IMG/VR virus record: IMGVR_UViG_3300031949_000044
Span: 1-56,859 of that record
Length of the DNA stretch: 56,859 nt
DNA from: a virus
Taxonomy: Duplodnaviria > Caudoviricetes
Reading direction: 5' to 3' (one strand)
The position numbers and the translations under genes were made by a program. How positions within the stretch are numbered: position 1 is the first letter of the stretch; each line of letters begins with the position of its first letter. Below the pieces are notes generated by a model that saw nothing but the letters and a program-made list of their open reading frames with translations, was not told the origin of the DNA and did no database searches. This document shows, piece by piece, positions 1 to 17,821 of this stretch.

Positions 1-99
1 AGCCAGGTCTACGAGGACTGGGCCGAATGCCCATCTGCCTCAAGATGATCCTAGACGCCTGCGAGGCGCACTACATCATGGGGGAGCGGGTGACTCAAG

Positions 100-309
100 T
101 TGACGCGACGGGCTAAGACCACGCTGATCCTGGCCGCCGTCTTCTTCGCTACCGTCCTGGTCATGTCCATGGCTGGCTGTCGCCCAGTCGATGGGCCTGG
201 TCCCCGGACGCCTGGACCTACCGGCAAGACGATCGTCCCCTGGGCTCCCAGTGCCACCAGGACACCAGGCCACGCTGGCCCAGCGAGTACTGGGGACACG
301 AGTCCATGA
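100..309 (+). CDS. Small putative lipoprotein/secreted protein
   Basis: Basic N-terminus, hydrophobic stretch, MAGC lipobox-like motif, Pro/Thr-rich tail; ATGA overlap with the next ORF. Confidence 0.5.
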   Translation: MTRRAKTTLILAAVFFATVLVMSMAGCRPVDGPGPRTPGPTGKTIVPWAPSATRTPGHAGPASTGDTSP

Positions 310-395
310 AACGGATCCCGTTCCCAGTACTCTTGATCCTGGTCCTGGTGGCCGGGTTTATGATCATGACATCGCTGGGATACTGCACCGGATAG
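306..395 (+). CDS. 29-aa single-TM peptide
   Basis: MKRIPFPVLLILVLVAGFMIMTSLGYCTG; start overlaps the upstream stop (ATGA). Confidence 0.45.
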   Translation: MKRIPFPVLLILVLVAGFMIMTSLGYCTG

Positions 396-407
396 CGATA
401 TCCCGGG

Positions 408-1357
408 CCGACTTGACTTCCCTTGCCTGATCCAGGCAGCCCTGTTCCGACTACCCCGATCCCTCCTAGCTCAACTCACGCCGACTTCCCTTGCCCATCC
501 CTGCCTCTGCGGTGCCAGCCAATCCCACCCGACAATCTCACCCGTACCGCCCCGACACTTCACACGCCGACATGCCTTGCCTTACCCCATCTCCTCGTTA
601 CGACGTTCCTCTCCACCCACCCCCTTCCCCGGTTCCGACGAACCCACCCCCTCCTCGCCAGATCGTTACGACATTCCCACCCGCGCCTGCACTTCCCCAG
701 ATCGACAAGCCTCTCCATCTCCGCTCGGTGCCGACCGCTACGACATCCCAAGTCCCGTCAAAACCCGCCTATTCGACATCCCGACTCTCGACAACCCTCG
801 TCTCCGCGACTGGCCAAACTAGTCCACTCCAACCCTGTTCGACCAACCTGTTCCCACCTTTACGACGAACCCGGTCCCGCCTGGTCTTCACCAACCCCTA
901 CGACTTCCTTCTGTGACAAGCCGGACCTACATCTCCCGTCCCAATACGACAGACCTTTCCCTGCCCAACCAACCGACATGCCTACCCACGCCATGATCGT
1001 GACCGCCCATTACGACAATCCCCGCCCACTCCTCACACCCCTGTACGACAGGCCATGCCACGAAAAGCCCCCGTCACCTCAGCCCGCTACGACTACCCGT
1101 TTCACGTCCCCGCACCCCTGTACGACGTGCCTATCCATGCCATGACCGCCCCCACTCTGTACGACAAGCCTTACCCGTCCTGGCCGACCCCGTGCGACAA
1201 GCCGATCCAGGTCAAACTCCACTCCGTCCGCACGACAATCCAGCCCGTTACGTGCTCCTATCATGCCGTTACGACAAACCTAGCCATCATCGATTCAGAT
1301 CAATCCGTTACGACAAGCCCCCCCGGTCTTCTGCACGCCGGCCCAGATGACAATCCA
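408..1357 (+). repeat. Pentamer-periodic array A (about 28 units, CGAC + (NNNCC/NNNNC)x~6); candidate guide-RNA array
   Basis: Example: gac-atgcc-ttgcc-ttacc-ccatc-tcctc-gttac-gac and gac-gaacc-caccc-cctcc-tcgcc-agatc-gttac-gac; the overlapping ORFs are low-complexity Pro/Arg/Thr. Confidence 0.85.
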
Positions 1358-1360
1358 CAG

Positions 1361-1397
1361 AGGGTAGCTCCTGGTCGCCACGATCAGGAGCTACCCT
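1361..1397 (+). terminator. Strong hairpin at the 3' end of array A
   Basis: agggtagctcctg / caggagctaccct perfect 13-bp inverted repeat, extendable by gtcg/cgat. Confidence 0.7.
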
Positions 1398-1403
1398 GTT
1401 GCC

Positions 1404-1679
1404 ATGACCGAGGAACGTTGCCCGTGTGAGGACCTGACCGACGCTGAGCTGCTGGCGTTCGCTGGCGAGGGACGGATCCCCAAGGCTCTCGGTCAGTACT
1501 GGACCCGCGGCGAGGGTGCCGCGAAGATCGGTTGGGGTACCGATGGGGCATTCAAGCGGTGCACCAGACTCCTCCGGGCGAAAGTCAAGGACATGGGCAT
1601 CGACATCGAGGGTCTCTGTGCTAACCTTGAAAAGCGGGCAACCGGACACTGGCCTGCCGAAAAGGTGATCGATAGCTAG
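1404..1679 (+). CDS. Conserved actinophage hypothetical protein
   Basis: YWTRGEGAAKIGWGT...RC...GLCANL...ATGHWP motif pattern recalled from actinophage proteins; AGGAG upstream. Confidence 0.7.
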   Translation: MTEERCPCEDLTDAELLAFAGEGRIPKALGQYWTRGEGAAKIGWGTDGAFKRCTRLLRAKVKDMGIDIEGLCANLEKRATGHWPAEKVIDS

Positions 1680-1686
1680 GAGAGGC

Positions 1687-2268
1687 ATGCGTACATGTGG
1701 ATGGTGCGGGCAGTCCATCGACCACATGGCAAAGATTGCCAAATACTGCTGCCTTCAACATAAAAAGAACGCAGCCTCTAAGCGACACCGAGAACGTAAC
1801 CCTGGTTACTATGCCCAGTACAGTCGATCTCCGACCAGGCTGGCGTACAACGAGGCCAACCTGGACCGCAGGCGCGAACAGTCTCGGCTCAGGATGCGAG
1901 TCCTGCGAACGGAGAAGCCAGAAGCAACGGCCCAGTACGCACGCGACTGGTGGCAGGCCAACAAAAATAAGCACTACGAATACAATCGTCGTCGCAGGGC
2001 CATGAAACTGGCTGGCGGCACTGGAGTCAGTGATACTGACTGACTGAAACTGTTGCGCAGACATAATTTTACATGCGCGTACTGTCCCCGGCGAGGCAAG
2101 TTGACCATGGATCATGTGGTTCCATTGACTCGCGGCGGTCGACACAGCATCGGTAACGTGTTGCCAGCCTGCACCCCCTGCAACAGCGGGAAGGGCGCCT
2201 CTCTCCTTGTTGAATGGAGACGGCGAGCGACCGGCGAATGGCCGGCGGAAAAGGGCGTAGAGTCTTAG
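1687..2268 (+). pseudogene. HNH endonuclease interrupted by an in-frame TGA (2041-2043)
   Basis: ORFs 1687-2043 and 2053-2268 are in the same frame; CAYC...TMDHVVPLTRGGRHSIGNVLPACTPCNSGK is an HNH motif; the stop lies where a Trp (TGG) would be plausible. Confidence 0.8.
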
Positions 2269-2279
2269 GCAGATCCACG

Positions 2280-2317
2280 GCAAACGACCCCAGTCACTGG
2301 AGACTGGGGTCGTTTGC
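2280..2317. terminator. Perfect 16-bp hairpin between convergent units; 3' end of array B
   Basis: gcaaacgaccccagtc-actgga-gactggggtcgtttgc. Confidence 0.8.
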
Positions 2318-2321
2318 GTCG

Positions 2322-3307
2322 TGGACTGTCGCAGAGATCTGGGATGCCAGGGTTAGTCGGCATGTCGTAGTGGCGTGGTTCGTTGGTGATACGGCTTGTC
2401 GTATAGGACGGGTTGGGCCTTGAGGGAACTGGGTCGTCGGAACGAATTGGTGAATTATGCATTGGGTCGTCGGAACGAATTGGTCAGTTAGCGCGGAAGC
2501 GGTACGAGCTGTCGAGGGGGGAGGTTCGAATTGGCTTGGATGGTCGAAATGGAGAGGCATGCCGGGAAAGGGGTTGGCTTGTCACCTGCGCGGAGGTGGC
2601 GCGGAAAGGCTCGTCAGTCGGGGCGTAGAGAGTTGGCTCGGCTCGTCGGATAGGGGCGATAGAGGTGCGTGCCGTGGTGTCGGTCAGTATTGGAGCGGAA
2701 TGATCCGTGAAGTCGTAGGGACCTGGAGTGGCTTGCGCCTGGCAAGTCGAACGGTTGGCCTAGGCGGAGGAGGCAAGGAGCGTCGAATGGGGCGGATGAG
2801 GCGAGGGGCGGTTTGTCGGGTGGATTCGACCAGTCTAGGTCGGGTGAGTCGGGGGGTGTGGTTCGAGCCGGGGAGTCGGCGCGGTTGGGGTATGCGCGGA
2901 GGTGGATGGGTGCGTCGGGCAGGACGGTACTGGGCCGGCACGATCAGGTATGTCGGTCTGGTGAGACTAGATCCGGCCGGGTGCGTCGGATGAGGTTGGG
3001 CTGGCGAAGACGCGGCCAGGTAAGTCGGATTGGGTGGGCCTGGAACGAGTCAGGCACGTCAAGAGGAGTGGCCGGGACGGGTCAGGTGTGTCGGTGAGAA
3101 GCGGAGCGTCCAGATGAGGCTTGGCCTGTCATATGGATTGGCACGAGAGTGGGTGGGGTGGGGAGTCGAATCGGGATGAGGTGAGCCAGGGCCGGGAAGT
3201 CGGCAAGGACATGGCCAGTGATGGTTGGGGAAGTCGCAGTGGCGAGGATCGCGAGGAGCTGGTCAAGGGTAGTCGGTTTGAGACGGGGAGAAAGGCTGGG
3301 GAAGTCG
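2322..3307 (-). repeat. Pentamer-periodic array B (about 30 units), downstream of the RAMP gene
   Basis: On the + strand, GGNNN pentamers with GG-NNN-GTCG delimiters roughly every 33-39 nt; same grammar as array A in reverse complement. Confidence 0.85.
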
Positions 3308-3308
3308 A

Positions 3309-3340
3309 CGCCGGGCTCCAGGTCGCCCCAGAGCCCGGCG
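3309..3340 (-). other. Hairpin between the RAMP stop codon and the start of array B
   Basis: cgccgggctc / gagcccggcg perfect 10-bp stem. Confidence 0.6.
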
Positions 3341-3347
3341 CAGTGAC

Positions 3348-4190
3348 TCAGGCGGCCTGAGGTACCACCGCCGCCGCCTTCTTGGTAGCGGCCTTCTTAG
3401 CCGGCGGCTTGACCACGAGCAGCTCCGCGCCAGCTTCCTTGGGCTCGTTGCGGGTCTGCTCGAAGTGGATGACCCGGTAGCGGCCGAAGCCCTGCGAACG
3501 CGAGGCACCGATCCCTTGCTGCTGACCGGTGACCCAGATCGTCCTCCATGCGGGGCCGGTGAACTCGTAGTCGCAGATCAGGTTCATCACGATGACAGCG
3601 CCATCGACGTACTCCTCGTAGGAGATCGAGGAACCGAACCGGGTCTGGACGAACCGCTGCGCAATCCCCGTGACCTCGGTGACCGGGATGATCCGGGACT
3701 TTGCGTTATTCGGGTCACTGAGCTGCCCGAGGTACAACTCATCTTCCTCCACGAAGCAGTGCTCCGGGAAGAAGTTGGTGATCCATTTCTTGGTCTCACC
3801 CCAGCCGGTGGCCTTCAGGTTCCCGGCCGCCACCGCGACGGACACGGCTTCCTTCAGCGCGGCCTTGGCCTGACGGCCCTCGATGTACCGGATCCCGGTG
3901 ATGGGATCGTGCCGGAAGCCGTTGATGTTGCTTTTCCTGATGACTTCCTCGACGGCGTCTTCCTTGGTGACGACCTCACCGGCCTCGGTCCGGGTGATTA
4001 GGACGCGGGCGACCTCGTCCTGAAGCAACTGGTTGTCATCCATCCCCATCTTTTTGCGCAACCAGCCTTCCACCACGCGGTCGTTGTTGGGGACGCCCCC
4101 TGCAATACGATCGCAGAGCAGGTGTACCTCGTAGCCGAACCGGAAGACCTTGGCCTCCTCTTCGGCGAACACGGACTGAATGTAACTCAT
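3348..4190 (-). CDS. Stand-alone RAMP (Cas7/Csm3-like RRM-fold) protein
   Basis: YIEGRQAKAALKEA resembles the RAMP YIPGSSLKGALR motif; C-terminal glycine loop GIGASRSQGFGRY; strong RBS AAAGGAGA; Lys/Ala-rich tail. Confidence 0.8.
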   Translation of the reverse strand: MSYIQSVFAEEEAKVFRFGYEVHLLCDRIAGGVPNNDRVVEGWLRKKMGMDDNQLLQDEVARVLITRTEAGEVVTKEDAVEEVIRKSNINGFRHDPITGIRYIEGRQAKAALKEAVSVAVAAGNLKATGWGETKKWITNFFPEHCFVEEDELYLGQLSDPNNAKSRIIPVTEVTGIAQRFVQTRFGSSISYEEYVDGAVIVMNLICDYEFTGPAWRTIWVTGQQQGIGASRSQGFGRYRVIHFEQTRNEPKEAGAELLVVKPPAKKAATKKAAAVVPQAA

Positions 4191-4225
4191 GTATTTCTCC
4201 TTTCAATTGGTGTTTCATTGTTGAC

Positions 4226-4931
4226 TGGATAGTCGTAGCGGTATGGGTGAGTGTGGACCTGGGACGGCAAGTCGTAGTGGGACTGGGATGTCTGGACCAG
4301 ACAGGGGTAGTCGTAGTGGTCCGGTGAGGACCGACGGAGCGTTGGCCTGGGGAGTCGGTCGGGGACGTAAGGGGTGGTACGCCGCGTCGATCTGGGTCGT
4401 GTCGTTCCAGGGCCGGACAGTCGGTAGAGGGAAGGGGAGTGCTCTGATCACGTCGTCGTGCCGGGTGGTCGGGTGTGGAGACGGGGGTCGGACGGTCTCG
4501 GTCCGTCGAGCTGGGGGGCATGGATAGGTCAGGCCAGACGAGTCGAAGCGGCTAGATTCGGGTTGGGTGGCTCGGGGTCGTCGTATTGGGGAGATCGGTG
4601 CGGGCAAGGGGTGTCGGTATGGCTGGACTCGCGGTGCACGGGCAAGGGAAGTCGGTCGGGGTAGGAGCAACCTGGGCAGGCGTGTCGTAACGGCTAGGAG
4701 GTCGTGACGCGGGATGAGAAGTCGGAGTAGGCGGGCAGTAAGGGGTCGTCGGATGGGGCGGGCCAGAGATGATGCAGGAAAGTCGCAGTGAGGCGGTCGG
4801 TCATGCATTGGTCAGTCGGGCGGACGTGAGAAGGCCGGGGTTGGCTTGTCGACGCGAAGTGGCCAGGGAGGAAGCGACTAGGCAAGTCGTACGGTTCGAT
4901 GCATCTGGGGTTGACGGGGTGGGGTTAGTCG
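4226..4931 (-). repeat. Pentamer-periodic array C (about 20 delimiters), immediately upstream of the RAMP gene
   Basis: GGNNN-GTCG delimiters mostly 32-34 or 37-39 nt apart; the first overlaps the stop codon of 4925-5455 and the last lies about 30 nt before the RAMP RBS. Confidence 0.85.
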
Positions 4932-5455
4932 TCCGTGCCGGTGAACTGGGCACGCATGGCTTGGATCTGAGCTTCGCTGAACACATCTCCTACAGTCCGG
5001 TCCCCCACTCTTCTGGAGAGTTCCCGGTAGAACGCGGCGAGGAAGCCGTTCTCTCGTGCCCGGTCCTGGTAGCGATCTGCCAGGAAACCCAGGTCTGTCC
5101 TGTTCATGTTCCGGAGTTTCTTCCGGTTATTCTCCCGGTCCACCGCGTGCATGGTCCCGAGAAATGATCTGAGTGGTTCCGTCTTGCCGGCCACGAAGTC
5201 ATCCAGAACGTCGTTGAAGTCCTGTTTCTTCTCTTCTATCACGCCCCTGGCGCGACGGCTGCGGTCCCGATAGTTGATCGCATCATGGAGTAGGTCCGCC
5301 GCTCGGACCTGAAGCCACCCGTTCAGTAGGTCCGGATCCTGAGCCAGTAGCTCAGAGACGATATCCTGCGCCACGATTCGGGATTGATATGTGTCAACCC
5401 CGGTGTGCCGTTCGATGACCAGATCCATCTCCCTGGTGAAATCCCTCTCTCCCAT
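4925..5455 (-). CDS. Helical hypothetical protein, candidate partner of the RAMP
   Basis: 176-aa ORF with GGAGG RBS, same strand and directly 5' of array C and the RAMP gene. Confidence 0.75.
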   Translation of the reverse strand: MGERDFTREMDLVIERHTGVDTYQSRIVAQDIVSELLAQDPDLLNGWLQVRAADLLHDAINYRDRSRRARGVIEEKKQDFNDVLDDFVAGKTEPLRSFLGTMHAVDRENNRKKLRNMNRTDLGFLADRYQDRARENGFLAAFYRELSRRVGDRTVGDVFSEAQIQAMRAQFTGTDD

Positions 5456-5528
5456 GCGTTCCTCCCTTCATTCACGTGTCAAGACAATGGCGTGCATGGA
5501 TTCCATAACGCCTCCCATCAGGAGAAGC

Positions 5529-5562
5529 GGGGTCCCGAGAGTAGGCAACCCCCCGGGACCCC
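5529..5562 (-). terminator. GC-rich hairpin after the ParB-like gene
   Basis: ggggtcccg...cgggacccc; extends with G-U pairs on the minus strand. Confidence 0.55.
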
Positions 5563-5574
5563 CTCCCCCTGAAT

Positions 5575-6435
5575 CTACTTCTCGGTCCAGGGATCCAGCT
5601 TGTTGGACCGAAGGTCCTTGTTATAGATGTCGACCAGGACCATGGCGACCGCACCGGCTTTGGTCAAACGCATGGCGTCGCGGAGCGTGGTCGCCTTGTT
5701 GATCACCTCGCGTGGGCCGCCAGGGACGGCGGTCAGCTTCTTGATCATGTGGCTGCCGTTGACCTTGTCGCCCCTGAACAGCAGGAGCTTCCCCATCCCT
5801 GCCAGGAGCGAGTCGTTCAGGGCGCCGTAGCGGTTACCCCACGCCCCGGAGAGCAGGGATACGGAGGTTTCCGCGAGGTCCACGTCCAGGGCGAACAGTC
5901 TCTCCAGGGTCTTTACGGCTCCGAAATTGCCGTCCGCGATGCCGCCACGCAGGCGCCACTCGTGCTTGACGAGGACGTTGAACATCTTTATTGCCAGCGG
6001 ATCCCGTTCGATAAGCTTGACCCGGAAGATGTCGAGCGGTTGCGGGTGCTTGGTGTTGTTCAGTAGGCGGAATAGCACTGCCTCTTCGGCCGGCGACAGG
6101 TCCTCAAACGCCTTGACCTGCACTTCCATGGACCCCTTGCCCAGAAGGGCTAGTGCGGCCTGCCTGTGCTGCCCGTCGAGGGCGTAGTACTTCCCATCCT
6201 CGCGCCGTGACGCGGTGAGCACGCCGATGGCCTCGGGCCGGTAGTCACCAGCGATGCTGTTGACCCGCTCCACGCTCAGGCGCCTCTGGAGCTTCGGGTC
6301 GATCTTCAGCTCCTGTACCGGCAGCTCGATCATGAAATACGATCGAACATTAGGCGGTGCCGCTAGGGCCTTCTCTACGGCCAGGTCGGCGGCCTCCTGA
6401 GCCTCAGCGTCCAGGCCGATCTTCTCTTCTGTCAC
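5575..6435 (-). CDS. ParB/Srx-like N-terminal (DGQHR) domain protein, DUF6551-like
   Basis: LKIDPKLQR...IGVLTASRR...YALDGQHR motifs; GTG start overlaps the upstream stop and has a GGAGG RBS. Confidence 0.75.
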   Translation of the reverse strand: MTEEKIGLDAEAQEAADLAVEKALAAPPNVRSYFMIELPVQELKIDPKLQRRLSVERVNSIAGDYRPEAIGVLTASRREDGKYYALDGQHRQAALALLGKGSMEVQVKAFEDLSPAEEAVLFRLLNNTKHPQPLDIFRVKLIERDPLAIKMFNVLVKHEWRLRGGIADGNFGAVKTLERLFALDVDLAETSVSLLSGAWGNRYGALNDSLLAGMGKLLLFRGDKVNGSHMIKKLTAVPGGPREVINKATTLRDAMRLTKAGAVAMVLVDIYNKDLRSNKLDPWTEK

Positions 6436-7001
6436 GGTCTCTTGCCCTCCCATCCTTTGAGCACTTGCGGTCTGCCTTCTCTTATCTTGCGGTTGTACCA
6501 CCCGGAGAGTTTCTGGCGCCCAGTCCAGATCTTCTTCGCCAGGGTGGCTACTTCCTCATCACTGATCTGCTCTGGAATGTGTTTCTCCAGCTTTTCCAGG
6601 ATGAGCTGGATCTGATCCAAGTGATGTCCCACTTGATTCATCGCCGATCTGTATTGCGCGGGATCCGTCGTCCCGTTCTGGGAATACAGAAGCCCAATTT
6701 TCGTGCGCAATGTGTCAGGTCCGAATTTGCCGGCCTCGAACTCTTTGAACAGTTCCCTTGCCTCTTTGGTGTGGTCGCCGTTCTCTAAATACGCGACCCG
6801 GTACGATTTCTGTAACCGGTTTAACTCGTACCGAGACATGCCGTGCTCTCGGCAGAACAGATCCTGGAAGTTCCCTCGACCGAACCGGGGTTTCTTGACA
6901 TGTTCAGCCAGGGCTTTGTGGTATTCGATAAACAACGCTTCCCAAGATGGGAATCCTGCTGGACGCGTATCCCTGTTTGGGTCGGCGCGTCGTCTACTCA
7001 T
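6432..7001 (-). CDS. Hypothetical protein (helical, possibly DNA-binding)
   Basis: 189-aa ORF translationally coupled to both neighbours. Confidence 0.7.
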   Translation of the reverse strand: MSRRRADPNRDTRPAGFPSWEALFIEYHKALAEHVKKPRFGRGNFQDLFCREHGMSRYELNRLQKSYRVAYLENGDHTKEARELFKEFEAGKFGPDTLRTKIGLLYSQNGTTDPAQYRSAMNQVGHHLDQIQLILEKLEKHIPEQISDEEVATLAKKIWTGRQKLSGWYNRKIREGRPQVLKGWEGKRP

Positions 7002-7213
7002 AGGCGAGCCCTAGCCGCTTCCCAGCGCTTTACCTCATCCATGCGAATGCGCCACGAGGCCCGTTTCCGGTCGCCGTCCGCCTGCTTCTTGGCGTTCAGG
7101 TTCTCCGCTGCCAGCTCCCCGCGACTGATCATGTTGTAGACAGCCTGCTTGGACACATTCCAGCGGCTACACAGGAACGCCACACCGACCAGGGTCGGTT
7201 CCTCTTTGTCCAT
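6998..7213 (-). CDS. Small HTH (excisionase/MerR-like) DNA-binding protein
   Basis: WNVSKQAVYNMISRGELAA...WRIRMDEV pattern; GGAGG RBS. Confidence 0.8.
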   Translation of the reverse strand: MDKEEPTLVGVAFLCSRWNVSKQAVYNMISRGELAAENLNAKKQADGDRKRASWRIRMDEVKRWEAARARL

Positions 7214-7237
7214 GTCCCTCCTCCCTTTGATCTTTGA

Positions 7238-7266
7238 ACTATATCCTACATAGCCTCTGGAGACAA
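7238..7266 (-). promoter_or_regulatory. Sigma70/HrdB-type promoter for the HTH-ParB-RAMP unit
   Basis: TTGTCT-N17-TATAGT on the minus strand. Confidence 0.6.
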
Positions 7267-9870
7267 CTACCCGGTCATATGTCCGAAGAACCCAGTTTGT
7301 CCGTTAAGCGCTATACCTACCCAGTAGACCTGACCGCCGCGCTTCGTCTCCGCGATCCCCGTGCTAGCTACCCGCTTGTTGAACTTTCGCTGCCCGAGTG
7401 CGATGAACCTGTTGGCCTGGCACCAGTTCTCGTACCTCTGGAACAGGTGTGCCTTGATGACCTCCGCGTCAGGCGTGGGAACGATCTGCTCTTGGGCGAA
7501 GGCAGTCTCCAGGAACTGGAGTGCGGTGTCGTTCTCCACCCGGTACTTCTCGCCCGCGTCCGTGACAGCCTGCGGTGCGCTGACTCCTTGCCCTCGGAAC
7601 TTGGCTAGACCCTCTAGGAGCCAGTTCAGGATCCCATCCGCCTCGGCCAGGAGCTTGTCCAAGATCTCGTGATCCTCGGTCGCGCTACCCTCGAACTTCT
7701 GGTTGAACTCAATGACCTTGATGCGTCCCCAGGCCGCCGGGTCATCCGGGTTGATCTTCGGGTTGTGGTTCGTGGCCATCCACATCACGGCCTGAGGGGT
7801 CCAAGACTGTGGCGCCTCGTACAGACCACGAGAAGTGATCGAGTCCTGGCCAGTGAGGCGCTTGATCAGTTCCTCGTCCAGCTTCGAGTCCTCGGCCGAC
7901 TCAGACGTTGCCACGAACCGCTTTCCGCGCAACGCGTGAAGCTCCACAGTGGACGTGTTGTCACCCTTCTTGGCTCGGAACAATGATGCCGCTGCCGTGC
8001 CTCCGTAGTCACCGAACACCTGGGTCAGGGTCTCGACCAGCTTGGACTTACCGGTTCCGGGAGGTCCGGACAGTAGAGCCATGGCTCGCCGGTTCGGCTT
8101 ACCCAGCAAGGAGTAGCCGGCCATCCGTTGCAGGAAGTCGCGAGTCTCGGGGTCCGGGATGACCTCCTCAAGGAACTGGAGCCAGCGAGGAGCGGTCGCG
8201 GCCGGTCGATATGTCGCACCGAAGGTCTTCGAGAGCATGTACCTGGGGTCGTGAGCCAGGAGTTCGCCACTCTCCAGGTTCAGGATTCCGTTGCGTACGT
8301 TCAGATACTTCGGGTCCACGTCGAAGTCATGGGCGTGCGCCTCGACTCCGGGCTCAGCCCGGTACATGGCGACCGTGCCCTCGACCTTGCTGTTGGCGTT
8401 CGAGGTGCTGGCCCATTTACTCAGTGCCGTGCCCTCCTCGCCCAAGAGCCCGGCTTGCTTTTTGGTGATCTTGTTCATTCGCTTGACGGCGGCCTTGATC
8501 GGGTCCTGGTTCAGCGCGAACCGCCAGGCAGAGCCTTCCCAGACGGCCCACTTTTTCATGTCCGCGCAGTATCGGTAACCGGTCGGGTACATGGCTACCA
8601 TGCGTTCCGCGTTGCCACCGTCACTGTGTTCGTACATGGAGAGATCAGGTACCGCGACCTGTTGCGGGACAACGGAATCCTCGGGTACACCAATCAGGAT
8701 CGGTGGGCACCAAGCGGCCAGCTCAACCGGCTCCGCGTCCATCATGACGGTGCGAGCCTCGCCGAAACCCTTCTCTCGCAAGGATTTGGCAGCCGCACTC
8801 ATGTCACCGGCGTGGTGGTATGCCGCGTACACATACTGTTTCGTGTGTTCCTTCTGTGCTTCAAGCTCAAGGACGTCGGTACTGAATATCCAGATCCTGT
8901 CCCGGTCCGCGGCGTGCCCGGTGGATGCACTGTGCCCATCCCTGCGGTCCTTGCCGGGTCGTACCCAGTACCTGGTCTCCCCGATCTGGTGGGAGAAGGC
9001 CCAGCCCAGCGGGATCAGGATGTCGGCCCAGTCCGTCTTCGCCTCGTAGTCGTCCAGGGGAGAGAGACCAGACAGAGGGGAGGGGGTGTTCCGGGGAGCT
9101 GGTCGTGGTGCCGGCTTCGGGATGACGTCCTTGGCAGCCAAGGTCGCTGACTCGGTCAGGTCGGCCATCGTATACATGGTGCCGGAGTTCTCGGTGAGGA
9201 TCTTGCACGGTCGCTCCATCCCCGCCTTCCGGTTCACCGTGCCAGGGATCCGGAGTACCCGGGCCAGGTCGTGGATGCCGGTCCCGTACTCGAAGCCGGC
9301 GCGCTCGAAGGCGTGGCCGATGATCCGATGCCACTGCTCAGATCGGGCCTGGAGTTCGGGCAGCCCTTCCTCGGTGACCCGGAGCGGATCCTTGAGTAGC
9401 CACCACGGATAGAGTCCGCCACCTGAGTGGATCCAGAGGGTTGGCTCGGGGAGCCCGGAGCTGGCCAGGATGATCTTCGCCTGCTCGACGGTCTCCGGAA
9501 GATCCAGTTTCTTGTGCCGGTGTGGCTTGGGACAATCGTCGGTACAAACCTCGTGCTTGTGGCCAGGACCACGCAGATCGATGTCGGCCCAGAAGCCGGG
9601 GAACGTCAGCGTGTCCTTGACCCCGCCTCGCTCACCCTTGTCCAGGCGCCTGGAGACCGTGGTGGCCCGGACGTAGATACCCTCGGTACCGCCGTTGTGC
9701 AGGGACTCTATGTAGTACAGGGCCTTGGAGACCCAGTCGGTCTTACTCAAGTCAATAGTTGCCCCGGCAAAGTTCCCCACGGAACAGATGTGCAGGAACC
9801 CTTCCGAGTCCCCGTGGAGCTGCTCAAGCCAGACCTGCGCCTCGTCCCGATCAAACCCGGCTTGTGGCAT
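7267..9870 (-). CDS. DNA primase-helicase (RepB/AEP-like primase fused to a D5/P4-type SF3 helicase)
   Basis: WADID, HSGGG..PWW and RVLRIPGTVN primase motifs; Walker A GPPGTGKS; IKRLTGQD and ATNHNP SF3 motifs. Confidence 0.9.
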   Translation of the reverse strand: MPQAGFDRDEAQVWLEQLHGDSEGFLHICSVGNFAGATIDLSKTDWVSKALYYIESLHNGGTEGIYVRATTVSRRLDKGERGGVKDTLTFPGFWADIDLRGPGHKHEVCTDDCPKPHRHKKLDLPETVEQAKIILASSGLPEPTLWIHSGGGLYPWWLLKDPLRVTEEGLPELQARSEQWHRIIGHAFERAGFEYGTGIHDLARVLRIPGTVNRKAGMERPCKILTENSGTMYTMADLTESATLAAKDVIPKPAPRPAPRNTPSPLSGLSPLDDYEAKTDWADILIPLGWAFSHQIGETRYWVRPGKDRRDGHSASTGHAADRDRIWIFSTDVLELEAQKEHTKQYVYAAYHHAGDMSAAAKSLREKGFGEARTVMMDAEPVELAAWCPPILIGVPEDSVVPQQVAVPDLSMYEHSDGGNAERMVAMYPTGYRYCADMKKWAVWEGSAWRFALNQDPIKAAVKRMNKITKKQAGLLGEEGTALSKWASTSNANSKVEGTVAMYRAEPGVEAHAHDFDVDPKYLNVRNGILNLESGELLAHDPRYMLSKTFGATYRPAATAPRWLQFLEEVIPDPETRDFLQRMAGYSLLGKPNRRAMALLSGPPGTGKSKLVETLTQVFGDYGGTAAASLFRAKKGDNTSTVELHALRGKRFVATSESAEDSKLDEELIKRLTGQDSITSRGLYEAPQSWTPQAVMWMATNHNPKINPDDPAAWGRIKVIEFNQKFEGSATEDHEILDKLLAEADGILNWLLEGLAKFRGQGVSAPQAVTDAGEKYRVENDTALQFLETAFAQEQIVPTPDAEVIKAHLFQRYENWCQANRFIALGQRKFNKRVASTGIAETKRGGQVYWVGIALNGQTGFFGHMTG

Positions 9871-9904
9871 ATGGCTTGTTCCTCCACAACATATAGCAAT
9901 GCAC

Positions 9905-9934
9905 TTGACCGCCCCCCGGGGGAGGGGTTACGCT
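9905..9934 (+). promoter_or_regulatory. Promoter carrying the conserved CCCCCGGGGGAGGGG spacer motif, antisense to the early operon
   Basis: TTGACC-N18-TACGCT. Confidence 0.6.
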
Positions 9935-10101
9935 GTCACCACACAACAGCGATGCACAGGACGGTCCCTTTTGCCGGGGGGCCGTCCTCGCTGCTGTTCA
10001 GCGACGTGGGTGTGAGCTTACGCCACGATCCCGGCTTCCGGTACGATCGGGGTGAAGGTGATCCTGCCCAGATCGATCTTCTCTTCTCCTCCCAGAAGAC
10101 G

Positions 10102-10138
10102 GCGACGGCTCCCGGTACACGTTCCCGGGAGCCGTTGC
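10102..10138. terminator. Hairpin/terminator
   Basis: gcgacggctcccgg / ccgggagccgttgc. Confidence 0.6.
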
Positions 10139-10150
10139 TATGTAAGGGAT

Positions 10151-10336
10151 CTAGGCTGTTTCTCGTCGGATGAGTTTAAGCAGCTCCAGGCCAATTTCGC
10201 CGGCTCGACGGTCGTTGAAGATACCGGCCGGAGTCTCGCTCCAGCACATCGAGGCAGCACCAAGAGCCTGATACACGGCGCTTTCGATAGGAATGGTGCC
10301 GTCATGTTCTGGGGTGAAATGGAACTCAGAATCCAT
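10151..10336 (-). CDS. Small conserved phage hypothetical protein
   Basis: MDSEF...AVYQALGAASMCW; start overlaps the end of the upstream gene. Confidence 0.6.
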   Translation of the reverse strand: MDSEFHFTPEHDGTIPIESAVYQALGAASMCWSETPAGIFNDRRAGEIGLELLKLIRRETA

Positions 10337-11237
10337 ACTGCTGCCGTTCCTGTTCCTGGTTGTACGGCTGCTGGACCTGCTGGCGAGCCAGGTCGTTGTT
10401 CTGATGCTGCATGGCCAGCCGCTCCAGCACGGAACCCTGAGCCGGCGGCTGCGGCGGCATGGGTGGCTGCTGGTACTGCGGTTGTGCCTGCTGAGTGGGC
10501 TGCTGAGCCCAGGCCGGCGGTGGCCCCTGCTCGTGGTGGGCGGGCTGCTGTGCCGGCTGCTGCTGATACTGCGGACGAGGGCCATCGCCGTACGGCCCGG
10601 TGCCAGGGTGACGTGCCGCGTACGGATTCATCTGACCCTCGTGGACGGGGCCGCCATTCCATCCGACTGGCTGCTGCTGGAACTGCGGCTGGGATTGTGA
10701 CTGCTGCCACTGTTGGGCCTGCTGTGGCTGTCCCTGCCACTGTTGCGCGGGCATGGAGCCCTGCGGCCAGCCCTCGTGCTGCGGCTGTTGGTTCGGCACC
10801 CACGGCTCCGGGTCCGGCGGGGCATCCGAGCGAACGAACTCGGGATTGGCGGCCATCCATGCGCCGCCCAATTCGACGGCATTAGCATCCCCGGACAGGT
10901 CCGTGATCACGTAGCTGCGGCCACCGTAGGAGTTCGCCACCTGGGTGAAGATGGCCAGTCGCGGGTCCGTGCCGACCAGGGACTTCAAGGTCTTGATCAA
11001 GCTGCCGGTGAACAGCCACACATTTCGGTACAGAACCGGAGTCCCGCCCATCAGCGGCCGGAGATCCACGATATCGCAGATCACCGGGTCAGCCAGTCTC
11101 CCCGTCCGCTGTGTCTGGGAGGTTCCCACGTTCCGCTTGTGGTCGTTGACCCAGATGATCAGGGGCCTGCCCACCAGGTCCTGAGCCCCGATCTTGGGGC
11201 CGCTGTTGTCCTGAATTGTCCCGAATGGTTGTGTCAT
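10326..11237 (-). CDS. ssDNA-binding-like protein with Gln/Pro-rich C-terminal tail
   Basis: About 140-aa globular domain followed by a disordered Q/P tail; located between the exonuclease and primase genes. Confidence 0.55.
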   Translation of the reverse strand: MTQPFGTIQDNSGPKIGAQDLVGRPLIIWVNDHKRNVGTSQTQRTGRLADPVICDIVDLRPLMGGTPVLYRNVWLFTGSLIKTLKSLVGTDPRLAIFTQVANSYGGRSYVITDLSGDANAVELGGAWMAANPEFVRSDAPPDPEPWVPNQQPQHEGWPQGSMPAQQWQGQPQQAQQWQQSQSQPQFQQQPVGWNGGPVHEGQMNPYAARHPGTGPYGDGPRPQYQQQPAQQPAHHEQGPPPAWAQQPTQQAQPQYQQPPMPPQPPAQGSVLERLAMQHQNNDLARQQVQQPYNQEQERQQYGF

Positions 11238-11466
11238 CTGCCTGTTCCTCTTCTACTACTTCGATCTGTCCCGCTTGCCGCCGGTCGTAGTCCGCCTGAT
11301 CGCCACGGGTCAGGTGATACCAGCCACAGTACCGGCACCGGTACGGTCTGCCGGGCTCCGGCAACTTGCGACCATACTCCGATGCCAGGTTGTACGAACC
11401 GAAAGATCCTTTCCCCTTGCGTCCTCGCCCGTGTGGGCAACGGGGACCGAACTTCGTATGCGCCAT
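11089..11466 (-). CDS. Small zinc-finger-like protein
   Basis: PYRCRYCGWYHLT motif; the 3' end overlaps the next gene, so the end is uncertain. Confidence 0.5.
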   Translation of the reverse strand: MAHTKFGPRCPHGRGRKGKGSFGSYNLASEYGRKLPEPGRPYRCRYCGWYHLTRGDQADYDRRQAGQIEVVEEEQADDTTIRDNSGQQRPQDRGSGPGGQAPDHLGQRPQAERGNLPDTADGETG

Positions 11467-11494
11467 CCTACGTACCCATATTCATTCTCCTTTG

Positions 11495-11888
11495 TGGATA
11501 GTCGCCAGGATCGGGCCGAGCCGCCAAGGTGATGGGCAGTCGCGTGGGTGGTGGGGGCTGTTCAGGCACGTCTCGTCGGTACTCTTGGTGCGCACTGGAA
11601 CGGAATGTCGGGAGGGCCGGGATGCACGTTTCGGGTAGTCGATGTGATGTGTCTTGCCGAGAAGCGGCGGGGATTGTCGTGCGGGCGGGCGGTCCGGGCG
11701 AGGGACGTCGGTTGTGTGTCGTGTGTCTAGTGTCGAAGCGGTGAGTCGTTAGGTGTCGGGGAGGGTTGTGGGTGGGTAGTCGTTAGTGGGTGGGCCGAAG
11801 ACGCGGTGGGTAGTCGTACCGGAGTGGCCGGTGGTGGTCGGGCAAGTCGCAGGGAGGCGGGAGGGAAAGGAGGGAGGCAGGGTAGTCG
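11495..11888 (-). repeat. Pentamer-periodic array D (about 11 units), directly after the Cas4-like gene
   Basis: GGNNN-GTCG delimiters about 31-39 nt apart; on the minus strand the first CGAC follows the TGA stop with no gap; ends gac-tatcc-a before an RBS. Confidence 0.85.
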
Positions 11889-12746
11889 TCAGCGACCCGG
11901 GCAGCCTGAAGCGTCAGGTCCCAGATCTATATCTCGGGGTTGAAAAAATGGGCAGTATGCACAGGATTGACCACTTGGGGTGGCTTCGATATCATCCCAA
12001 CGCTGAGGCTGGTTCATGATGTCGAGTTCCATCAGTCTACCAGCCAACCGATACATTCTGTCCAGGGCGCCTTGAGCGATTGCCCTGTCGTACGGGTACG
12101 TGAAGACCATCGCATCCGACAGCCAGCCGGCACGGGGCACGAAGTACAGGCTGACCTCGTCCACCGGGATACCGGAGTTCTCGTACCCCATCCCGTAGAG
12201 CTGAAGCTGGGTCTTGTACCCGGGCGGCACCTCTCCCTTCTTCAGCTTGGCGTGCAGCGTGGACCCATAGGTCTTGACGTCGACTACCCGTTTCTTGGAG
12301 ATCTGGTACAGGTCGGCGTGCCCATGGATCATCGGGTCAACCTGGACGGTCTGCTCGGTCAACCAGTCCTGCCCCATCCCCGCCCGCTGGTACGCCAGGA
12401 CGGCGCCCTCGATCCAGGCATGGACGGCAGTGCCCACAATCGCCGCCCATGGATCCATGGCCATGTTGACCTTGTCCAGGCCGGCGATCTTCATGCCTAG
12501 TTTCCGGTCGCAGGGATCGCCAAGCTCGGAAGGGCCTGGAGGGGCTTGCATGGACCGCTCGGAGTGTTCGTCCGCCCACAGGATGATCTCTGCCAGCTCG
12601 TGCTTCAGCGGGTCCGCGCCAGGGATAGCACCGAACATCGCACCAGACATAGCACTCCGATCGCATGTGGGATGTAGCTCCACGCCCTGGTCCAGCCAAA
12701 ACTTGGCCAACCGGACGCCACACACGTTACAGAGAGCCCCTGACAT
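11889..12746 (-). CDS. Cas4-family PD-(D/E)XK exonuclease
   Basis: PSELGDPCDR, HADL..VVDVKT, QLQLY and CAYCPF...CP (1+3 Cys pattern). Confidence 0.85.
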   Translation of the reverse strand: MSGALCNVCGVRLAKFWLDQGVELHPTCDRSAMSGAMFGAIPGADPLKHELAEIILWADEHSERSMQAPPGPSELGDPCDRKLGMKIAGLDKVNMAMDPWAAIVGTAVHAWIEGAVLAYQRAGMGQDWLTEQTVQVDPMIHGHADLYQISKKRVVDVKTYGSTLHAKLKKGEVPPGYKTQLQLYGMGYENSGIPVDEVSLYFVPRAGWLSDAMVFTYPYDRAIAQGALDRMYRLAGRLMELDIMNQPQRWDDIEATPSGQSCAYCPFFQPRDIDLGPDASGCPGR

Positions 12747-14376: not shown

Positions 14377-14393
14377 CTCCTCCTTTCCTGTTG

Positions 14394-14469
14394 CGCCGCT
14401 GACAGGATTCGAACCTGCAACCTCCGGGACCCCCTAGGCCCGGTGTTCAACCGTTGACACTTCAGCGGC
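14394..14469 (-). ncRNA. tRNA-like RNA with a 10-nt anticodon loop
   Basis: GCCGCTG/CAGCGGC acceptor stem, GCAGG-TTCGAAT-CCTGT T arm, anticodon stem CCGGG/CCCGG enclosing CCTAGGGGGT; no CCA. Confidence 0.7.
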
Positions 14470-14521
14470 GATGGGTGGGGGTCCGGCGCACCACCCTCTT
14501 GGTTCCGGACCCCCACGTCTA

Positions 14522-15760
14522 TCAGTGTTGCGGGTAGAACGTCACCGTGTCGTTGGGACGGTCCTCGTCGCCCTCGACCAGGGTCGGCAGAGAGTCCTGC
14601 CGATTACGGCGAATGAGGAACATGAGGCCGGCGCCCGCGAGGATCAGGAACGCACCGCTACCGGCGATCCAAGGGACGGGGTTACCGCCACTGGTGCCGG
14701 TGAGTGCCAGACCGCCTGGGGCCGCGTTACCTTCCACGACCTCACAGCCGATGCCGTCTTTGTCGCTGTCCAGGTCCAACGTGTAGCCCGGCTCGGTACT
14801 CAAGATTGGTGCCTTACCGGCAGCTCGGACGGCGTCGCAGTTGGCGTACAACGGTGCTGGGGTCGTGGCCGGCGGGGTCGTGGGGACAACGGTCGGGGTG
14901 ACGGTTGGCGTCGGCGTCGCAGTTGGCGTGGCACAGACAGTCGGCTTGATGCACCTGACCCGCTTGATCGTCCGATCCAGGAACTTGACCTCCAGCCAGC
15001 CGTCCGTCGTAGTGACGCCGGTGAAGGTGTTGGTGCCCATGACCAGGGTCTTCAGCGATCCGTTGATCCACACCTTGACGCCCGGAGCCAGCTTGTTGAC
15101 CACGGTCACGTCGACCTTGCCATCGCACTGGACCTTGTAGGACACATCCAGACATTTGTCGATGTCGCCGAGGGACAAGCCGGTGATGTCGCCGGAGTTA
15201 CCGTCTGCGCTCTGGATGTGCTGCTGGTTGCAGCTTACGTACTTCCATGCCCAGGACGTCAGCTTGCCCTCGTGGCCCTCGGACCAGAGCTTGTCGACCC
15301 ACGGGCCGGTCGAGTCGGCGTTGGTGCCGCTCGGACTCCAGAAGGGCCAGTTGGTTGGGTTGGCCGGGTCGTAGGGCGCCACGTAGGTCGCCGTGAACTT
15401 GCCGGCGAAGGTGCCCTCGATGCCGGGGACCATGGGGTTGTTGTTCGAGGACTTGATGCCGATGGTCTTGAACGTCCCAACGTCCTCGCCGACGACCTTG
15501 AAGGTTGCCGTGGTGACCGCGACCAGGGCCTTTTCGACCTCAGGCATTACGACCGGCTCCACGCAAACCTTGACGGTGCGCACGAATGTGTCGGTGGCCC
15601 AGTTGTGACCGCCAACCACCGCGCTGTCCGGTCGGACCATGTTCTGGGTGACCGTCTTACAGTTCTCGTCCACCGCACCAGCGGGACCGGAACCGAGCGT
15701 GGCACCGAACAGGCCACCGGCGACAACCGCCACCAGGGCCAGAGCTACACGATTCTTCAA
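14522..15760 (-). CDS. Secreted cell-wall-anchored protein with an Excalibur Ca-binding domain and LAxTG sorting signal
   Basis: Signal peptide; P/T linker; YANCDAVRAAG...LDSDKDGIGCE; LALTG followed by a TM helix and RRNR. Confidence 0.85.
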   Translation of the reverse strand: MKNRVALALVAVVAGGLFGATLGSGPAGAVDENCKTVTQNMVRPDSAVVGGHNWATDTFVRTVKVCVEPVVMPEVEKALVAVTTATFKVVGEDVGTFKTIGIKSSNNNPMVPGIEGTFAGKFTATYVAPYDPANPTNWPFWSPSGTNADSTGPWVDKLWSEGHEGKLTSWAWKYVSCNQQHIQSADGNSGDITGLSLGDIDKCLDVSYKVQCDGKVDVTVVNKLAPGVKVWINGSLKTLVMGTNTFTGVTTTDGWLEVKFLDRTIKRVRCIKPTVCATPTATPTPTVTPTVVPTTPPATTPAPLYANCDAVRAAGKAPILSTEPGYTLDLDSDKDGIGCEVVEGNAAPGGLALTGTSGGNPVPWIAGSGAFLILAGAGLMFLIRRNRQDSLPTLVEGDEDRPNDTVTFYPQH

Positions 15761-15816
15761 TGCTCCTCCTTCTCTATGAAACCCGTGTATCGAACCACAG
15801 GATGGTGATCTTGGCA

Positions 15817-15966
15817 CTAGACCGAGGAACCAAGCTTGGTCCACTTGTTGTGGATCTTCCTCGCCTCGTCGTAGCTGATCTGACCCTGGACCTTCTCCCA
15901 GTACCGCTGCCAGACCTCGGCATACGTAGTGGGCGGGGACCACGGCTTGGCCGCACTCGTTGCCAT
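15817..15966 (-). CDS. 49-aa hypothetical protein
   Basis: AAAGGAG RBS immediately after the tRNA-like element. Confidence 0.6.
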   Translation of the reverse strand: MATSAAKPWSPPTTYAEVWQRYWEKVQGQISYDEARKIHNKWTKLGSSV

Positions 15967-15980
15967 GTGACTCCTTTCCG

Positions 15981-16046
15981 GGGGGAGAGCAGGACTCGAA
16001 CCTGCACCCTGTCCGTCGACTGCGCTGCCAGTTGCGCTATCTCCCC
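15981..16046 (-). ncRNA. tRNA-like RNA with a truncated anticodon arm
   Basis: GGGGAGA/TCTCCCC acceptor, GCGC D stem, GCAGG-TTCGAGT-CCTGC T arm; anticodon arm is only GTC-GACG-GAC. Confidence 0.75.
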
Positions 16047-16102
16047 GAGGCCGGAACCCTGCTGCTGTCAAAATCAGCAGGGGTCCGGCGGTCTAGCGGA
16101 TG

Positions 16103-17605: not shown

Positions 17606-17662
17606 GAGTGAGTTGTTGCTGCTAATGATCTTCTCCCTTCCTCGATTCCTTTGATGTGTACG

Positions 17663-17821
17663 TGGGGAGACCAGGATTTGAACCTGGAACCTACGGTGTG
17701 CCGGAGCTGGAGCCTTTCGGCGTGCGTCTCACATGCGGCGCATGTCCAACAGAGGTGACCAGGGAGGACGAGATCCCTATCGCTCCGGTGACCGTTGCTC
17801 TGCCCGTTGAGCTATCTCCCC
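17663..17821 (-). ncRNA. tRNA-like RNA with an approximately 90-nt structured insertion in the anticodon loop
   Basis: GGGGAGA/TCTCCCC acceptor, GCTC/GAGC D stem, ACGGT/ACCGT anticodon stem, CCAGG-TTCAAAT-CCTGG T arm; the insert is closed by CCGGAGC/GCTCCGG. Confidence 0.75.

Follow-up and report, generated by a model that had tools for sequence, protein, structure and literature searches.

VIPR, a months-old discovery related to CRISPR, is an RNA-guided device in which a RAMP protein, Vipr, works with vrRNAs written in pentamers, and DNA is read by a gapped code (bioRxiv 10.64898/2026.04.26.720920 and 10.64898/2026.04.26.720927). Of the seven types, only type II has had its G-based code solved so far. 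Small-RNA sequencing of types II, III, and V showed G-based fixed bases in every vrRNA examined, and the published pocket for position 3 in the Vipr of Escherichia phage SUSP1, a type II system, excludes purines (same two preprints). The guides of SUSP1 are ~100 nt long, with 9–16 YNNGG repeats ahead of a structured 3' tail that does not vary. In addition, the Methods of the first preprint give NNNGG, YNNNG, and NNNNG as alternative repeats, and the legends of figs. S17–S18 describe "staggered" vrRNA arrays. A subsequent entropy-periodicity survey reported non-canonical VIPR-like arrays with the motifs GAC/NN, CAC/NN, WGT/NN, and TGH/NN (bioRxiv 10.64898/2026.10.21.760802).

The locus described here lies in a 56,859-nt stretch of DNA (the window, analyzed as a whole) in which genes for a terminase, a portal, a major tail protein, and a tape measure protein were found, identifying it as a tailed phage. 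With a probability of roughly 0.88, the locus is a phage-encoded VIPR system that comprises a Vipr-type minimal RAMP, four arrays with ~74 short guides, and a 176-aa accessory protein. Considering that VIPR is already in print (2026 preprints), it is a further example and not a new class. A preliminary description had likened the locus to VIPR, and the published system agrees with that account: its pentamers are GGY/NN, each is bound by one protomer, and its targets are read by a gapped code. The closest likeness is to the type II system of SUSP1, which is also phage-encoded with one minimal RAMP and one accessory gene and shares the flanking non-coding arrays, built in 5-nt steps that each contain two hypervariable positions.

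The Vipr-like protein and its partner gene

The vipr-like gene (3348..4190, minus strand) encodes a 280-aa minimal RAMP with a Cas7 fold and the G-loop GIGASRSQGFGRY at residues 226–238. Both motifs quoted for this product in the preliminary description are present, and the Cas7/Csm3 fold that it predicted was confirmed, the nearest solved folds being Csm3 and type VII Cas7. The best-scoring models in a BFVD search were viral RAMP-like proteins, and the family profile matched nothing relevant among PDB sequences. Comparison of SUSP1 Vipr with an 89-sequence profile by hhalign gave a weak match (E 7.8e-4, probability 25%, 136 columns) in which the RAMP core aligned, helix 1 and the G-loop included; a 35-sequence profile gave an E of 0.069. 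In this weak alignment, D177, W178, and R138, which hold G1 and G2 in the 195-aa SUSP1 protein, correspond to A229, S230, and E192/E193, and R179 of the pyrimidine pocket corresponds to the invariant R231.

The RAMP had been called "lone", a term that has to be withdrawn. A gene at 4925..5455 (minus strand) adjoins it in 38 of the 59 viral loci, always upstream of vipr and on the same strand (tblastn). Its 176-aa, all-helical product has no Pfam, PDB, or Atlas assignment and belongs to no known family, and its AF2 model reached a pLDDT of 91.5. The gene preceding vipr in the Microcystis phage Mae-JY09 encodes a related protein (hhalign probability 97%). This vap-like gene is a conserved partner and the accessory protein gene of the system, as expected for VIPR, where a vap gene (vap1–6) stands beside vipr. 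The accessory gene follows vipr in SUSP1, whereas it precedes vipr here.

The protein family comprises 423 clusters at 50% identity, mainly from actinomycete phages and prophages but also from Mae-JY09. Homologues were located in 59 IMG/VR loci and 13 genomic loci, 12 of the latter in Actinomycetota, a distribution in keeping with the occurrence of VIPR mostly in phages or proviruses. Arrays delimited by GTCG adjoin the gene in nearly all of the 59 viral loci, in all 13 genomic loci, and in Mae-JY09. Matching arrays accompany homologues down to 28% identity, as the preliminary description had anticipated, and the two-gene-plus-array layout is kept in dozens of phages and prophages.

None of the cas models of PADLOC matched the 42 ORFs of the window, in agreement with the earlier reading of the locus, and only the HNH gene gave generic matches. 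The components of a class 1 CRISPR-Cas system (a repeat-spacer array with Cas10 or Cas14, Cas5, Cas11, and Cas6) were thus missing in the PADLOC and tandem-repeat searches, and the locus has, as in VIPR, neither a CRISPR array nor other cas genes. Csm3 and Cas7 of types III and VII bind crRNA with a 6-nt period in multi-protein effectors served by repeat-spacer arrays, all of which are absent here.

Four arrays with a punctuated pentamer code

Array A (409..1350) contains 31 delimiter sites and is C-rich on the plus strand, the sense strand of the adjacent plus-strand genes. The other three arrays are C-rich on the minus strand. Array B (2328..3307, ~30 delimiter sites) lies downstream of vipr, and array C (4232..4931, 31 sites), C-rich on the sense strand of its genes, occupies the entire gap from the stop of the accessory gene to 41 nt short of the vipr start. 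Array D (11501..11888, 16 sites) is placed between an ORF at 11089–11466 and an exonuclease gene at 11889–12746, both on the minus strand. The GC skew ranges from -0.29 to -0.55 over 401–1400 and from +0.39 to +0.54 over 2301–3300, 4201–4900, and 11501–11900 (calculated over 200-nt segments). Within the first 14 kb, GTCG or CGAC occurs 5–12 times per 250-nt bin inside the arrays versus 0–4 times outside, with the exception of the coding bin 9001–9250, which holds 6 GTCG. Strong skew and delimiter coincide nowhere else in the 56,859-nt window, and both measures confirm the four arrays at the places originally given for them.

The only Rfam matches were tRNAs; neither ribozymes nor other RNA families were seen in the arrays. 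A search for RNA runs covering positions 400–5500 listed none. Consensus scans yielded 2 promoter-like sites versus 1.2 expected and 3 terminator-like sites versus 3.5 expected, which is uninformative in high-GC DNA. The motif CTCCTTTGTGGAT was seen at 8 of 83 array starts versus ~1 expected, mostly in the ribosome-binding region of the next gene.

Splitting the window arrays at GTCG on the G-rich strand gave unit lengths that cluster at 33/34 and 38/39 nt. Among units of at least 23 nt, 25 of 73 have a length of 3+5n and 29 of 73 a length of 4+5n (54/73 in total versus 40% expected). In the 64 units of at least 28 nt, the frequency of G is 0.86, 0.84, 0.72, and 0.67 at positions 9, 14, 19, and 24, and 0.27–0.42 at the fully variable pentamer positions. 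Unanchored period-5 power was clear in array A (0.361 versus 0.191 +/- 0.033 in shuffles) and not clear in arrays B, C, and D (0.243, 0.229, and 0.172), because the register resets at each delimiter. The absence of a constant CRISPR repeat, also claimed earlier, is borne out by Tandem Repeats Finder, which detected nothing beyond 28 nt in 1–12500, and by all 74 window units of at least 23 nt being distinct, with an identity of 0.27, the chance level, at the two variable positions.

The code was computed family-wide on 348 distinct units from 60 sources. On the G strand, position 1 is G in 0.95; position 2 is G in 0.62 and A in 0.21 (purine 83%); position 3 is G in 0.47, A in 0.18, C in 0.21, and T in 0.13 (purine 65%); and positions 4 and 5 each reach 1.98 bits. 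Unit lengths peak at 28, 33, 38, 43, 48, and 53 nt, and even at 28% protein identity each step of the strict 5-nt lattice retains two maximally variable positions. A guide is accordingly built of 6–7 pentamers, each with one fixed, two biased, and two free bases, and successive guides are set apart by a 3-nt mark (GTC/GAC) that breaks the 5-nt register. "CGAC plus 6–7 pentamers NNN-(C)C", the original wording, is correct for the C-rich strand.

Flanking non-coding pentanucleotide arrays with fixed and hypervariable positions are the hallmark of VIPR and are seen here, with a fixed base at 0.95. The SUSP1 pentamer contains a pyrimidine, whereas position 3 on the G strand here is mostly not a pyrimidine and the canonical GGY/NN motif is not seen. 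Likewise, the units of 33–39 nt with 6–7 pentamers, a 3-nt mark, and no tail differ from the ~100-nt, tailed sense-strand guides of type II. Read on the G strand, the arrays fit only the related NNNGG or NNNNG repeats named in the preprint Methods, and the units abut without spacers like the "staggered" arrays of the figure legends. They also share a period of 5, an adjoining Vipr-like fold, and fixed trinucleotides other than GGY with the arrays of the survey 10.64898/2026.10.21.760802, and some of the motifs that it lists end in C, as nYC/NN would. Those motifs are reported to repeat ~10 times, with no mention of 3-nt punctuation or operon embedding in the passages that describe them.

The strand that carries the guides

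The arrays had been described as a C-rich variant of the VIPR motif. At the DNA level this distinction falls away, since the C-rich pentamer is the reverse complement of G-R-n/NN, and a C-based reading is consequently a claim about the transcribed strand. As such a claim it is favored by the array-gene junctions and by the residue comparison with SUSP1.

Homology-anchored genes were used to count the junctions at which an array meets vipr or the accessory gene (99 junctions in 74 loci), a count that supersedes a noisy ORF-based tally of flank orientation (58 C-sense versus 37 G-sense). The C-rich strand is the sense strand of the gene at 93 of the 99 junctions. The median C-sense gap is 25 nt from array to vipr start (n=40) and 15 nt from accessory stop to array (n=33), and the two remaining C-sense sets have medians of 35 nt (n=13) and 36 nt (n=7), leaving no room for the promoter (or terminator) of an antisense transcript. 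The 6 G-sense junctions have gaps of 95–377 nt. The G-sense arrays of loci L036 and L039 are C-sense when set against the adjoining convergent gene. In the window, all four arrays are C-sense relative to their neighboring genes; the arrays of SUSP1 are G-rich on the sense strand of the gene, whereas those here are C-rich on it and fill the intergenic gap.

Arrays A and B, like the arrays in L003 and Mae-JY09, have a strong hairpin at the C-sense 3' end. The hairpin of array A (1361..1397) has a 13-bp stem, a dG of about -33 kcal/mol, and no convergent gene alongside; that of array B (2281..2316) has a 15-bp stem and a dG of about -35 kcal/mol, and also directly follows the convergent HNH gene. 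A further hairpin with a 9-bp stem, read from the sequence, lies at 3310..3339 between the vipr stop and array B.

On this evidence from gene order and sequence, the precursor is probably the C-rich strand, formed as a single transcript through the accessory gene, array C, vipr, and array B, and bearing an nYC/NN pentamer with GAC punctuation instead of GGY/NN. On balance, the same would apply to the actinophage VIPR branch, with C-strand nYC/NN guides in blocks of 6–7 pentamers split by GAC, intercistronic in an accessory-array-vipr operon and cut to ~33–38 nt. In that case, with the residues holding G1 and G2 swapped and the arginine of the pyrimidine pocket kept in the weak alignment, the fixed part of the VIPR code would be able to evolve from a G-based to a C-based form, and the strand now assigned to some NNNGG arrays may be wrong.

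A less likely possibility is that the system is the same and the guides are the G-rich strand (G-R-n/NN, of the NNNGG or NNNNG kind), mostly antisense to the operon and transcribed from promoters in or near coding sequence. It would agree with the G-based fixed bases of the published vrRNAs, and G at position 1 (95%) with a purine at position 2 (83%) mirrors the published G1 and G2. In L041 and L046, moreover, G-sense arrays lie beside genes of the same strand in the order gene, terminator, array, which resembles SUSP1, and the hairpin after vipr in L055 has a T-rich tail on the G-sense strand only. Long untranslated RNA that is C-rich and G-poor is the classic substrate for Rho loading, and G-rich RNA resists Rho; G-strand guides would escape termination that a C-rich precursor may invite. 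The Rho argument, the fixed G plus purine, and the weakness of the residue alignment all count against the C strand. G-strand guides, however, would have to be expressed antisense at 93 of 99 junctions with the short gaps on either side, while vipr itself would still need C-sense transcription through the array. Their position 3 would also be a purine in 65% of units where the published pocket excludes purines, and the G1/G2-holding residues of SUSP1 are not retained.

Proposed function, targets, and significance

By analogy with the solved SUSP1 system, the protein would bind guide RNA and polymerize on it. One protomer would occupy each pentamer, sequestering the fixed bases and leaving the two free bases exposed for reading. 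Filaments would stop and restart at the 3-nt mark, and the short filament would read double-stranded DNA by a gapped code and silence a competitor element as its target.

Single-unit targets were sought with 374 distinct guides (units of 28–58 nt with a length of 3+5n, out of 1,578 units). When 14 reading rules were applied to 1.2 Mb of sequence (the window and related loci, arrays masked), none of them rose above order-shuffled guides. With the published 2-base, 1-skip rule, perfect matches numbered 33 versus 32–41 in the shuffled controls, and 128 adjacent pairs of units, read jointly across -1 to 8 nt at the junction, produced no signal. The sole 9-pentamer unit of the window had 1 match in IMG/VR, on a contig of 40% GC, with ~1 expected by a rough chance estimate. 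Each unit holds only 10–14 specifying bases under the published rule, little for unique targeting. This shortness, the empty target and RNA searches, and the weak sequence match to a published Vipr count against the VIPR reading as a whole.

The target searches, the few specifying bases, and the embedding of arrays between genes of one operon would also fit cis-acting spacers (untranslated leaders, Rho-dependent attenuators, or DNA-level binding repeats) in place of guides. Such spacers are nevertheless quite unlikely: the 5-nt lattice with two maximally variable positions is the published vrRNA signature and is conserved to 28% identity, the 74 of 74 distinct window units fit a guide repertoire better than an array of binding sites, and arrays A and D stand apart from the gene. 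A decayed or miniature class 1 CRISPR-Cas system (type III or type VII) stripped of its remaining cas genes is very improbable, since its resemblance to Csm3 and type VII Cas7 and the Cas4-domain-like exonuclease gene beside array D (best PHROG match nonetheless a phage exonuclease) are set against the lack of CRISPR repeats and of cas models among the 42 ORFs and against a layout conserved in dozens of phages and prophages, which speaks against decay.

As a VIPR system, the locus belongs to a very large, uncharacterized branch from high-GC phages that is open to experiment through three cultured hosts or phages: Mae-JY09 and two lysogens, Nocardiopsis tropica JCM 10877 and Streptacidiphilus carbonis NBRC 100919. 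With G-rich guides, the locus would add a further case of VIPR whose antisense layout is unusual. If the guides are C-based and embedded in the operon, arrays found by their pattern alone would need strand checks, the protein-RNA recognition code of VIPR would prove to be plastic, and the branch would offer another design, built on very short modular guides, for gapped DNA recognition that can be programmed.

A Cas7-fold RAMP in a tailed phage

Gene content marks the window as a tailed phage that lacks cas genes. Its PHROGs genes include a terminase, portal, head morphogenesis protein, major tail protein and tape measure protein, together with a primase, an exonuclease, a RusA-like resolvase and a ParB-like protein, and none of its 42 ORFs matched a cas model. 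The assembly consists of one contig, the window itself.

The ORF at 3348-4190 (-), here called vipr, encodes a 280-aa protein that carries both motifs quoted in the preliminary description and has no match in the Pfam, PHROG or PADLOC families. An AlphaFold2 model of this protein was built from 35 homologues (pLDDT 83). Foldseek comparison of the model with the PDB gave type VII Cas7 and type III Csm3 as its top matches (E 8.8e-7), and the best matches in BFVD were viral RAMP-like proteins. Judged from the model, the 280-aa protein is a Cas7-fold RAMP. The earlier proposal of a RAMP without accompanying cas genes was thus upheld on both points. In a 90%-clustered collection, 666 homologues were found at E <=0.001 (423 cluster representatives at 50% identity), with no named member among them.

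The viral VIPR systems with GGY/NN pentamers that had been named for comparison exist in print. In the accessible parts of two companion bioRxiv preprints (10.64898/2026.04.26.720920; 10.64898/2026.04.26.720927), a VIPR system is described as consisting of a minimal RAMP, named Vipr, non-coding RNAs of GGY/NN pentamers encoded on its flanks and, in most cases, a single accessory gene (vap). Each pentamer is held by one protomer with GGY flipped into the protein, while the NN bases pair with DNA and every third target base is skipped; most of the systems are viral, and they act by silencing competing elements. The Methods of the first preprint (10.64898/2026.04.26.720920) name the alternative repeats NNNGG, YNNNG and NNNNG, and a figure legend there gives "staggered" arrays as abutting VIPR guide RNAs (vrRNAs). 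A third preprint, likewise accessible in part, adds non-canonical fixed trinucleotides, e.g., GAC/NN and CAC/NN (10.64898/2026.10.21.760802). By the text of these partly accessible sources, the locus matches the published kind, which comprises seven types. It is a genuine, well-formed VIPR system with about 74 predicted guides in four arrays, carried by a genome of actinophage type.

Pentamer arrays and their code

The window contains four strongly GC-skewed non-coding stretches, namely arrays A (409..1350), B (2328..3307), C (4232..4931) and D (11501..11888). The skew ranged from -0.29 to -0.55 over 401-1400 and from +0.39 to +0.54 over 2301-3300, 4201-4900 and 11501-11900. When the first 14 kb was divided into 250-nt bins, those in arrays contained 5-12 GTCG or CGAC sites and the others 0-4, with the single exception of the coding bin 9001-9250 (6 sites). 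Moderate C-over-G skew (about -0.3) without delimiter enrichment also occurs in the short stretches 7201-7400, 48401-48700 and 56601-56800.

Read on the G-rich strand and split at GTCG, the arrays gave units most commonly of 33, 34, 38 and 39 nt. Anchored at the delimiter, the G frequency was 0.86, 0.84, 0.72 and 0.67 at positions 9, 14, 19 and 24, against 0.27-0.42 at fully variable pentamer positions. Each unit therefore consists of GTC followed by n pentamers, n being mostly 6 or 7, and about half of those in the window contain an additional base. Without anchoring, a period-5 test gave a clear signal for array A alone, because each delimiter resets the register. TRF found no constant repeat in the arrays, and all 74 units of at least 23 nt were distinct, their variable positions being 27% identical, as expected by chance. 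The four arrays and their lack of a constant CRISPR repeat, both claimed in the preliminary description, were accordingly confirmed.

The same code accompanies the protein elsewhere, as had been suggested for a check. Among 59 related IMG/VR loci (28-47% protein identity), GTCG outnumbered every other non-GG tetramer in the skewed segments beside the gene at almost every locus, its density there being 2-4 sites per 100 nt, loci of 46% GC included. The 1,578 units of these loci and the window showed length peaks at 28, 33, 38, 43, 48 and 53 nt. In 348 distinct units of 28-48 nt, read on the G strand, G made up 0.95 of the bases at the first position of internal pentamers, 0.62 at the second (A, 0.21) and 0.47 at the third; the fourth and fifth positions were unbiased (1.98 bits each). 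In the final pentamer before the mark, A or T made up about 75% at each of the last two positions.

Thirteen further loci were genomic, 12 of them from Actinomycetota, including Nocardiopsis tropica JCM 10877, Streptacidiphilus carbonis NBRC 100919 and Streptomyces strains. The sole match among deposited phage genomes was Microcystis phage Mae-JY09 (L061; PP395641.1, 37174-38976), in which the partner gene discussed below, vipr and then a CGAC array with a hairpin lie at the end of the linear record. The 517 nt 3' of its vipr homologue hold 18 CGAC and no GTCG in 33-nt units. This record is of a cultured cyanophage of about 70% GC, and the genes of the system are all annotated as hypothetical proteins.

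The motif CTCCTTTGTGGAT(A)GTCG was observed at the junction of an array with the next gene start in the window (11487-11504) and in the related loci L002, L007, L040 and L053. It occurs at 8 of 83 array starts, with about one expected, and is probably a shared ribosome-binding region. A related copy, CTGTGGATTGTCA, lies at array A with no gene start alongside.

No targets were found for single units (14 reading rules, 1.2 Mb of window and related DNA) or for paired units, and an IMG/VR scan with the only 9-pentamer unit of the window gave one match, in a 40% GC contig, which is about the number roughly estimated for chance. Under the published rule, a unit of 6-7 pentamers specifies only 10-14 bases; more positions may be read, or units may cooperate. 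Such searches do not separate guides written on the C-rich strand (nYC/NN with a GAC mark) from guides on the G-rich strand (G-R-n/NN), because the gapped pattern is identical in both.

The partner gene and other neighbours

The ORF at 4925-5455 (-), of 176 aa, had tblastn matches in 38 of the 59 viral loci, and in every matched locus it lay upstream of vipr on the same strand. The gene preceding vipr in Mae-JY09 fits its profile (hhalign probability 97%, E 7.7e-11), and the model of the 176-aa protein is all-helical (pLDDT 91.5). The ORF is treated here as a putative vap-type gene of the system and a new accessory gene. A GC-rich hairpin (5529-5563) lies between the stop of the ParB-like gene and the partner start, and the roughly 70 nt from it to the partner ATG at 5455 are the sole room for an operon promoter near the locus.

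The ParB-like, HNH and primase neighbours are not conserved with the system, recurring in 0-2 of the 59 loci. The HNH endonuclease gene (1687-2268, +) is split by a single in-frame TGA (2041-2043) into ORFs of 118 and 71 aa in one frame, the second aligning with PHROG HNH profiles (about 196 positions) over their C-terminal part only, and is either a pseudogene or a case of stop read-through. Array D is immediately preceded, on the same strand, by an exonuclease gene (11889-12746, -; PHROG 1674, E 2.4e-62) that also matches Cas4-domain families, though less strongly, and recurs in none of the 59 loci. A tRNA gene cluster (14393-20978, -; seven by Rfam, five by ARAGORN) includes an ARAGORN tRNA with a four-base anticodon (cggg) at 19171-19250 and a 159-nt Rfam match at 17663-17821, whose length suggests an insert or intron.

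Which strand would carry the guides

The canonical reading places the guides on the G-rich strand. In the accessible text of the first preprint, the experimentally sequenced vrRNAs are all G-based (10.64898/2026.04.26.720920), and the fixed G followed by a purine resembles G1 G2 of the published pentamer. The orientation of the arrays argues for the opposite strand. In Escherichia phage SUSP1, which has a type II VIPR of solved structure, vipr was located at 28474-29061 (-) with the published residues H17, R138, D177, W178 and R179 confirmed, and YNNGG tracts lie on the sense strand of the gene, whereas the window's family shows the opposite. Junctions were counted from homology-defined gene ends at 74 loci with a vipr match, duplicates removed, for arrays of at least 8 sites and junctions within 400 nt. 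The C-rich strand was in the gene's sense at 93 of 99 array junctions with vipr or the partner gene, with short median gaps (array to vipr start, 25 nt, n=40; partner stop to array, 15 nt, n=33; vipr stop to array, 35 nt, n=13; array to partner start, 36 nt, n=7). The six G-sense junctions had gaps of 95-377 nt. All 16 arrays of the genomic loci were C-rich on the gene's strand, and each of the four arrays in the window has its C-rich strand in the sense of the genes beside it.

The array spans the distance from the partner stop codon to the vipr ribosome-binding site, ending 41 nt before the ATG in the window; transcription of vipr must therefore cross the array in the C sense. In two of the exceptions, L036 and L039, the array immediately follows a convergent neighbour, to which it is C-sense. 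L041 and L046, with G-sense arrays next to same-strand genes, favour the G-rich strand. Strong hairpins lie at the C-sense 3' ends of arrays A and B and of the L003 and Mae-JY09 arrays, with no convergent gene at that of array A; at L055, a T-rich tail to the hairpin downstream of vipr is present on the G-sense strand only. Rho would be expected to load on a long untranslated RNA rich in C but not on a G-rich one, which counts against guides on the C-rich strand.

Residues of the protein may also point to the C-rich strand, through a profile alignment to SUSP1 Vipr (E 7.8e-4) whose weakness counts against this reading. A229 and S230 stand opposite D177 and W178, and E192/E193 opposite R138, residues given as contacts to G1 and G2 in the accessible part of the companion preprint (10.64898/2026.04.26.720927). 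R179, placed by the same source in a pocket that takes only pyrimidines at position 3, corresponds in the alignment to R231, which is invariant in both family alignments. On the C-rich strand, 95% of units have C at position 3. Taken together, we put the probability that the guides are written on the C-rich strand at roughly two in three. What this locus adds to the VIPR systems is a specific, testable claim, that in this branch the guides are encoded within the operon by its C-rich strand.
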